A DNA stretch of 64,000 nucleotides, from the sequence record PV464739.1; one strand, given 5' to 3'. The notes beneath the pieces were generated by a model. That model was not told the origin of the DNA. It was given only the letters and a program-made list of their open reading frames with translations, and did not search any database. The translations under genes and the position numbers were made by a program. The stretch is from Escherichia phage RCIP0363. Of the stretch, positions 61,628-62,324 are shown one piece after another (within the stretch, counting starts at the first letter, position 1; each line of letters opens with the position of its first letter).

Positions 61628-61789
61628 TCCCCTTCCGTTACTAATAGGCCGCGCTTAGTCGCGGCTTTTCTTCGTCCCTATCTCGGTGCGCTCCTACGCG
61701 AAAACTCCTTTATCCTTCCCTTCGTCGGCGCATAATCTTCGTCGAGATGCGCCTTAGTTCGCATAACGGGTATTACGTTAAATGGAGAA

Positions 61790-62260
61790 CATCGCGTAAG
61801 TCCTTGTTTTATATAGACACCTATATCGGACCGTTAGGGAGGGTCGCGTAAGTCGTTGTTTTATAAAGGCTCAAAACTTTCCCTTCGTTCCGAACTAAAA
61901 CGAGAAATATGCGGACCCTTCGCCCGAAAATAGTACGCATGCGAAATTACCGACATCTAGAATAATCCCTCACGATATTATCCTACACGCAATCATTCGC
62001 TTTCGAATCATTATGCTTCATATTATTATGCTTCGAATCATTCGCTTTCTAATTGTAACGCTGGAAACTGTAACGGCGATTGATTATTGCGTTCGTGTGG
62101 TTTTTAGGGCATGGGTCTTTTGGTGCGTTTTGGTACTTGATGAAATTTGCAGTACACTAATCAGAATACGACACATTTGGACCACTAACTTTTCAAAGAA
62201 AAAGTCCTAGACAGTACCGTACTATTTTGTACCCACAGTAAATTTGCAGTACACTACTGC
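61790..62260. repeat. Repeat-dense non-coding region
   Basis: tcgcgtaagtc(c/g)ttgttttata twice (61792, 61844); aatcattcgctttc twice (61991, 62036); attatgcttc twice; aaatttgcagtacact twice (62133, 62240). Confidence 0.5.
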
Positions 62261-62324
62261 GCGGCAGGCAAAAGAAAGGGCCGCCACAGCGACCCACGAT
62301 TCACGGTTAAATCAGCAGCACCCA

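Follow-up and report, generated by a model that had tools for sequence, protein, structure and literature searches.

In a 64,000-nucleotide stretch of DNA from Escherichia phage RCIP0363 (sequence record PV464739.1; hereafter the window), the repeat-rich interval 61630–62320 appears, with a probability that we put at about 0.6, to be the right-boundary, end-forming (terminase cleavage) region of a long direct terminal repeat (DTR). This reading is carried by the finding that the right boundary of the DTR, as transferred from sister phages by orthology, maps to 62120/62121 (a slash marks a cut), inside the interval. A sequence-only reading had offered an origin, a packaging signal or a genome terminus as the role of the interval; the terminus is upheld, as the right DTR boundary of the phages Mansfield (PhageTerm), WFH, Ro157lw (PhageTerm) and SP13 maps inside it, a packaging signal can reasonably be inferred from the position of the boundary, and an origin is not supported.

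Right boundary of the terminal repeat

The window belongs to a Wifcevirus-type E. coli myophage, showing 92–96% identity to AV128, Ro157lw, FEC19, Mansfield, and WFH (the hosts of Wifcevirus being E. coli and Shigella). The interval is covered in 28 of 28 phage-collection records with 89.5–97% identity and is gene-free there according to most annotators; E. coli genomes contain no match to the region. Long terminal repeats have been reported for several of these relatives: the record of Mansfield carries a PhageTerm-predicted DTR at 1–3673 (PMC6753283), a 3533-bp DTR of the T5-type long class was obtained with PhageTerm for Ro157lw (PMC6454146), and terminal repeats of ~3.7 kb have been published for WFC and WFH (PMC6563267). 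In the deposited records, the left and right copies of the repeat are 100% identical in WFH (3701 bp), Ro157lw (3533 bp), WFC (3784 bp), and SP13 (3899 bp), this two-copy identity being a property of the relatives' records, from which the DTR of the window phage is placed by orthology.

The DTR starts of Mansfield, WFH, Ro157lw, WFC, and SP13 (5/5) all align to window position 58272 (AATTAACTCC/ATTTT), and the repeat ends of Mansfield (3673), WFH (3701), Ro157lw (3533), and SP13 (3899) converge on one orthologous nucleotide, window position 62120; therefore, the DTR of the window phage would extend between these two positions (Table 1). Fixed, non-permuted, sequence-defined ends are seen in four of the five records at the right edge and in all five at the left. 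Although the DTR measures 3533, 3673, 3701, and 3899 bp in the four sister records (a spread of up to 366 bp) and 3849 bp in the window, the nucleotide at its right boundary does not change, so that the end is defined by sequence and not by length or distance. The boundary so placed is no simple chromosome terminus but the inner edge of a 3.85-kb repeat.

In concatemeric DNA, one DTR copy would lie between genome units, and a virion chromosome carrying the DTR at each end would need ends to be formed both at 58271/58272 and at 62120/62121. We infer that a conserved block around the right cut (62063–62142) is the terminase cleavage or nicking site for the right end and, by analogy with known terminase sites, that two of the repeat families of the interval, R1 inside the DTR and R3 outside it, may be bound by the small terminase or by another, accessory protein that would position the cut. 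The gap in which they lie may be kept untranscribed so that the nucleoprotein complexes at the cut and the repeats stay undisturbed. Supporting this scheme, the gene for the small terminase subunit (TerS) is located within the same DTR, and an end-forming cut at a defined sequence, as at a terminase site, is seen in the orthologous boundary of the four records.

Table 1 Features of the DTR and its two edges (window coordinates; a slash marks a cut)
Feature	Position	Strand	Description	Basis or conservation
DTR	58272-62120		3849 bp; single copy in window (concatemer/circular form)	start/end alignment to sister records
Right DTR boundary	62120/62121		right physical end of virion DNA in relatives; junction ...GGGCATGGGTCTTT/TGGTGCG	
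Conserved cut block	62063-62142		GT-rich, most conserved part of interval; ...GGGCATGGGTCTTT/TGGTGCGTTTTGG	
R1 copy a	61792-61816	+	TCGCGTAAGTCCTTGTTTTATATAG; inside DTR, 329 bp before cut	19/19 aligned genomes, 4/5 metagenome contigs
R1 copy b	61844-61868	+	TCGCGTAAGTCGTTGTTTTATAAAG; inside DTR, 277 bp before cut	kept in all relatives
R2	61991-62050	+	four 15-bp tandem units, consensus AATCATTACGCTTCG; inside DTR, 130-70 bp before cut	
R3 copy a	62143-62159	+	AAATTTGCAGTACACTA; 23 bp outside DTR	
R3 copy b	62240-62256	+	AAATTTGCAGTACACTA; 120 bp outside DTR, 97 bp past R3 copy a	
Inverted repeat, 11 nt, perfect	left arm 61927-61937, right arm 62218-62228		left arm AAAATAGTACG; brackets R2, cut, and R3 copy a	
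Intrinsic terminator, rightward early operon	61646-61667/61676	+	8-pair stem then TTTTCTT	annotated in Mansfield, WFH, WFC
Intrinsic terminator, leftward operon	62268/62278-62295	-		annotated in WFH, WFC
Left boundary module	58203-58393		cut 58271/58272 (AATTAACTCC/ATTTTAAA) inside AT-rich palindrome	
TerS gene	58632-59105	+	inside DTR	E = 9e-33 to PDB 7UXE (Pbunavirus E217 TerS); TerS in Mansfield annotation

Repeat families and conservation around the cut

The core of the interval is a gene-free gap of ~610 bp (61668–62277) between two convergent terminators, one following a 96-aa gene (61337–61627) that is the last of the rightward early operon, and the other belonging to the leftward operon with its gene at 62325–62705/62720. 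The absence of a convincing open reading frame, asserted in the sequence-only reading, is borne out by comparison with the relatives: each of the seven small open reading frames is disrupted in some of 19 genomes, by a frameshift or the loss of its start or stop codon, with no third-position bias, and no conserved protein-coding gene was found across the interval. A search for structured RNA gave no Rfam match at E ≤ 1 across 57000–64000 and no tRNA or tmRNA. The gap, of which the GC content is 40–50%, has no plus-strand promoter-like site and no strong predicted promoter between the terminators; it contains two weak promoter-like sites on the minus strand (9/12), both within R2 units, and a weak terminator-like site at 61926–61912.

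All the repeat families claimed for the interval were found there, far above chance: directly repeated 10-mers occupy 150 of its 691 nt, compared with 3.75 ± 8.7 (maximum, 44) in 1000 shuffles, and the only denser direct-repeat region in the 64-kb window is apparently low-complexity coding DNA at ~43.6–44.4 kb, where the imperfect repeats of 43550–44400 are spaced in multiples of 3 nt and look like a coding repeat on the minus strand. R1 (TCGCGTAAGTC(C/G)TTGTTTTATA), which has zero matches in any shuffle of the window, is present in both of the copies that had been described, starting at 61792 and 61844, with an offset of 52 bp corresponding to five helical turns; its C/G position varies among the relatives. 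The duplicate blocks described as interleaved are also there, with AATCATTCGCTTTC at 61991 and 62036 interleaved with ATTATGCTTC and GAATCA, and make up R2, which TRF resolves into a tandem array of 4 × 15 bp (in order, AATCATTCGCTTTCG, AATCATTATGCTTCA, TATTATTATGCTTCG, and AATCATTCGCTTTCT) and which may equivalently be viewed as a 45-bp imperfect duplication. R3 does occur as two exact copies, but their spacing is 97 bp, not 108 bp as had been stated.

These families are not conserved alike. R2 is the most variable segment of the region, with 35% invariant columns in the alignment of 19 genomes, and a deletion in Bas100 removes exactly 45 bp of it, that is, three of the four units; R2 is probably a slippage-generated spacer without a sequence-specific role. 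Of the 58 nt preceding the cut, 93% are invariant columns, as are 91% of the 22 nt that follow; the R1 and R3 regions reach 82–88%, versus 60% and 74% in the flanking genes. The core of the first R3 copy, AATTTGC(A/G)GTACACT, is retained in all relatives, and the second copy is conserved with a single A-to-C variant in WFC and Bas99. Essentially all of 24 related sequences (19 genomes and 5 metagenome contigs) retain both R1 and R3 with unchanged spacing to the cut. The informative contrast is a local one, in that R2 is free to vary and the blocks on both sides of it are not.

The most serious alternative, which we nevertheless think unlikely, is that the DTR boundary is real and the cut is set by short local sequence only, R1, R2, and R3 being non-functional duplications that arose by replication slippage or as relics of promoter/leader duplications and have persisted through close kinship. 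The properties of R2, a 15-bp tandem array of variable copy number and the least conserved segment, are those expected of such a spacer; there are only two copies per repeat family; TGTTTTATAT is common to R1 and the leader of the promoter of a neighboring paralogue gene at 61270; and the relatives are all at least 89% identical, with the DTR as a whole 95–98% conserved among them. However, neutral persistence accords poorly with R1 and R3 regions that are more invariant than the adjacent genes and are separated by R2 with its 35%, with an element-to-cut spacing that is fixed in 24 sequences, and with a gene-free gap of 600 bp, which is unusual for a genome reported to be 93% coding (PMC6753283).

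The resemblance of R3 to the motif AATTTGCACTAT, pointed out in the sequence-only reading, is weak: ATTTGCA.TA is common to both, but a weight matrix built from nine DTR copies gives R3 10.2 bits, which places it at rank 15–16 of 128,000 positions and level with the best chance matches elsewhere in the window; a kinship of R3 with the ATTTGCACTAT family is suggestive and unproven. ATTTGCA.TA occurs in 11 copies, all on the plus strand and only within 58609–62242, with none on the minus strand or elsewhere in the 64 kb; nine of them, all in the left half of the DTR (58608–60087), are of the ATTTGCACTAT type, and the other two are the R3 copies (62145 and 62242). This strict orientation suggests recognition by a DNA-tracking factor or a DNA-level signal. 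The ATTTGCACTAT sites are located in non-coding DNA (two just before the start of terS and one just after its stop) and antisense within minus-strand genes, and most of them are retained in 12 relatives. As for GTACACT, which ends the R3 core, five of its seven copies in the window are on the plus strand in a 4-kb span in or close to the DTR (58195, 60677, 61253, 62152, and 62249); two lie in early-promoter spacers (TTTACT-N-TATAAT/TATACT) and two in R3, and that at 58195 has no conserved counterpart in WFH or Ro157lw.

The 11-nt inverted repeat has a left arm invariant in all relatives and a nearly invariant right arm; with ~0.17 chance pairs estimated per 1.2 kb, its significance is borderline, and the inverted matches that involve the region are only 10–18 nt long. 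Predicted hairpins or cruciforms at the right cut and in each repeat family are no better than those of shuffles (z = +0.2 to +1.5). No IHF consensus was found near the right edge, the sole site in the DTR being at 58425. A 14-mer spanning the cut, GGTCTTTTGGTGCG, has a second copy at 62923; this recurrence is taken as chance because the copy at 62923 is not conserved in the relatives. A G-to-A change 12 nt upstream of the usual cut is shared by WFC and Bas99.

Several variable features adjoin the gap. In Ro157lw, ECML-117, FEC19, Eco4M-7, and SP13, the 96-aa gene is followed, ahead of the terminator, by an extra gene of 210 nt that is absent from the window (~61618–61622); the RefSeq 'transcriptional regulator' near the region in FEC19 and ECML-117 is that extra gene and was set aside as a candidate. 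Most relatives lack the segment 61030–61270, which holds a 50-aa gene (61070–61222) and shows 85% gaps in a 13-genome alignment, and the paralogue cassette at 60190–60550 is highly variable among them. Beside the minus-strand terminator (window 62290–62300), a CCCACGA-type heptamer is expanded to ~6 copies in Mansfield, with one extra copy in Bas99 and SP13.

Left edge of the repeat and the small terminase

The left cut lies inside a palindrome at 58253–58301 (GAAAAAAA...TTAATTTTTTTC), and the DNA fold predicted for this edge (58220–58330) has z = −3.0, 3 of 200 shuffles folding as well. Copies of ATACGGATGATACG flank the cut at 58203, 58212, 58337 (inverted), and 58380. In the window as a whole, ATACGGATGATACG has 16 matches with up to three mismatches, versus 3.6 expected, and 13 of the 16 are gathered in two clusters (6258–6889 and 58203–58393), one flanking the left DTR cut and the other upstream of a DUF2213 gene (7001–8419). 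At 6590–6900, the left-boundary module 58100–58400 has a paralogue that is ~250 bp long and 71% identical but without the cut sequence AACTCC/ATTTT. The pair TGGTGCG...GTACACT, found outside both edges of the DTR in the window, was also considered and is taken as chance because WFH and Ro157lw do not retain its left copy. Among 13 genomes (window 57130–58330), mean pairwise identity rises from ~0.4–0.75 to >0.9 exactly at the left DTR boundary, and no matching step is seen among the 13 at the right boundary.

In a search against Pfam and PHROGs, the proteins of the DTR and its flanks gave no informative family except TerS, which was identified through the PDB as a homolog of that of the Pbunavirus E217. 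E. coli Chi (GCTGGTGG) occurs six times in the window, versus 1.3 expected, with none of 100 shuffles reaching six (3416, 13171, and 34975 on the plus strand; 46732, 48099, and 59279 on the minus strand). The Chi at 59279, situated 1 kb inside the left genome end, is oriented so that it would act on RecBCD entering there, and it adjoins a ATTTGCACTAT site.

Alternative roles and comparison with known systems

Several points weigh against the interval being an end-forming region. The boundary in the window phage is transferred from its relatives by orthology, and among these WFC disagrees, its repeat extending 81 bp farther right (WFC 3703–3784, window 62121–62201) and ending between the two R3 copies, which reflects either a shifting cut or one imprecise determination. 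No motif is common to the left and right cut sites, and the right site has no palindrome or hairpin. The copy number of R2 varies, and, because of the close kinship of the relatives described above, the conservation of R1 and R3 is weak evidence of function; more divergent relatives were sought in the 28 phage records (at least 89.5% identity), in IMG/VR with TerS, and among metagenome contigs with the cut-site 23-mer, which gave only close ones (at least 89%). Furthermore, the small terminase of E217 shows no appreciable DNA binding in vitro (PMC9611059).

Apart from neutral persistence, three other roles for the repeats were weighed. A T5-like injection-stop signal is improbable: the early genes in the DTR would enter the cell first, and the repeats at the inner edge of the left DTR would pause entry until the early proteins are made. 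The position corresponds to that of Repeat Region 3 of T5, with ~450 bp here inside the DTR and 150–200 bp outside it; an untranslated repeat region does overrun the boundary, as the gap straddles 62120; the small DTR genes are preceded by sigma-70-type promoters (TTTACT-N16/17-TATAAT); and the DTR of Ro157lw has been classed as T5-type long. However, none of the six DnaA boxes (TTWTNCACA) in the window lies between 58272 and 62320, no long inverted repeat is paired with another part of the DTR, Pfam gives no match for the DTR proteins, so that equivalents of A1/A2 are not recognizable, and two-step transfer is not reported in the Wifcevirus papers examined.

That R1 and R3 are initiator-bound iterons of a replication origin is very improbable. 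Although they are direct repeats in non-coding DNA, and the 52-bp offset places the R1 copies on the same helix face, each family has two copies and not the three or more phased copies of an iteron array; the region has no DnaA boxes and, at its GC content, no AT-rich unwinding element; and it adjoins no recognizable initiator or helicase gene, the flanking genes having no family match. Scarcely credible is a regulatory or small-RNA locus with the repeats as operators or promoters of an unannotated transcript, for which the weak minus-strand sites in R2, the terminator-like site at 61926–61912, and the presence of GTACACTA of R3 in the spacers of two early promoters (60677 and 61253) might speak, since Rfam gives no match, the folds are no better than shuffles, the promoter-like sites sit in the most variable, copy-number-variable segment, and the flanking genes converge on the gap, leaving nothing to regulate.

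Taking the interval as the end-forming right edge, what has already been published is that Wifcevirus has a DTR and how long it is, and the end itself is already mapped in sister phages. The fine structure of this edge, that is, the repeat families split across the boundary, the convergent terminators, and the conserved cut block, is not mentioned in the papers examined on Wifcevirus DTRs, which give the repeat length only. In the paper on Ro157lw (PMC6454146, citing Casjens & Gilcrease 2009), the way in which long DTRs are generated is still given as unknown. Wifcevirus is well suited to this question, its TerS being homologous to that of the Pbunavirus E217, yet its ends being fixed 3.5–3.9 kb apart, versus the circularly permuted genomes of Pbunavirus, a sister genus that uses headful packaging (PMC12345254). 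This difference between the ends of the two genera probably lies in cis elements such as the right edge. A more far-reaching proposal, which we regard as decidedly unlikely, is that the cut block together with R1 inside and R3 outside forms a right-edge signal that directs a second, distant site-specific cut or nick by a terminase with homologs in the headful-packaging sister genus, and/or serves, without DnaA boxes, as a T5-like site at which stepwise DNA entry pauses; if true, this signal would be the missing cis element explaining how kilobase-long terminal repeats arise. Four Wifcevirus isolates of the BASEL collection grow on an E. coli K-12 derivative, and therefore the block 62063–62142, R1, and R3 are directly mutable, offering concrete candidates for the mechanism that generates long terminal repeats. 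The exact boundary is also useful for genome opening and annotation and for rebooting the synthetic genomes of therapeutic candidates.

The region belongs with the boundary regions of long DTRs, of which T5 is the studied example. The probable candidate for the injection-stop signal (iss) of T5 is its Repeat Region 3, 1.2 kb of untranslated and highly conserved DNA that is rich in repeats and located mostly in the left terminal repeat, with a 270-bp overrun into unique DNA (10.1101/866236). Both phages have a kilobase-scale DTR with early genes and, at the inner edge of the repeat, an untranslated repeat-dense block that overruns into unique DNA (by 270 bp in T5 and ~150–200 bp here) and is more conserved than the neighboring open reading frames; the 52-bp, five-turn spacing recurs in T5 too (10.1101/866236). 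However, there is no sequence similarity between them, the block here is at most half the size of that of T5 and lacks DnaA boxes, nested palindromes, and long inverted repeats, and the DTR is 3.85 kb compared with ~10 kb.

At the concatemer junction of T7, as Dunn & Studier (1983) and later packaging work are said to have described, a 160-bp terminal repeat has the short-repeat arrays SRL and SRR on its two sides, and pac sites are present. Fixed, sequence-specific ends, a DTR that is single in concatemers, and short direct repeats beside the boundary are found in both phages, and both of the ends need recognition together with duplication of the repeat. In contrast, the terminal repeat is 24 times shorter in T7, which has arrays of ~12 heptamers instead of two-copy families, and its processing is coupled to T7 RNA polymerase; we know of no phage RNA polymerase here.

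In lambda (cosQ-cosN-cosB), P1 (pac), and SPP1 (pacL-pacC-pacR), repeated boxes for the small terminase flank the cut of the terminase site. The present region resembles these sites in having short direct repeats on both sides of the cut, in being a non-coding or tolerated cis element, and in the nearness of the small terminase gene (here 3 kb away in the same DTR), whereas those sites initiate packaging (or, in the case of cosQ, terminate it) without a kilobase DTR, and R1 and R3 are only candidate protein-binding sites, the homologous TerS of E217 having bound DNA poorly in vitro. Finally, within Wifcevirus itself, the records of Mansfield, Ro157lw, WFH, WFC, and SP13 share the right boundary in four of the five and the left end in all five.

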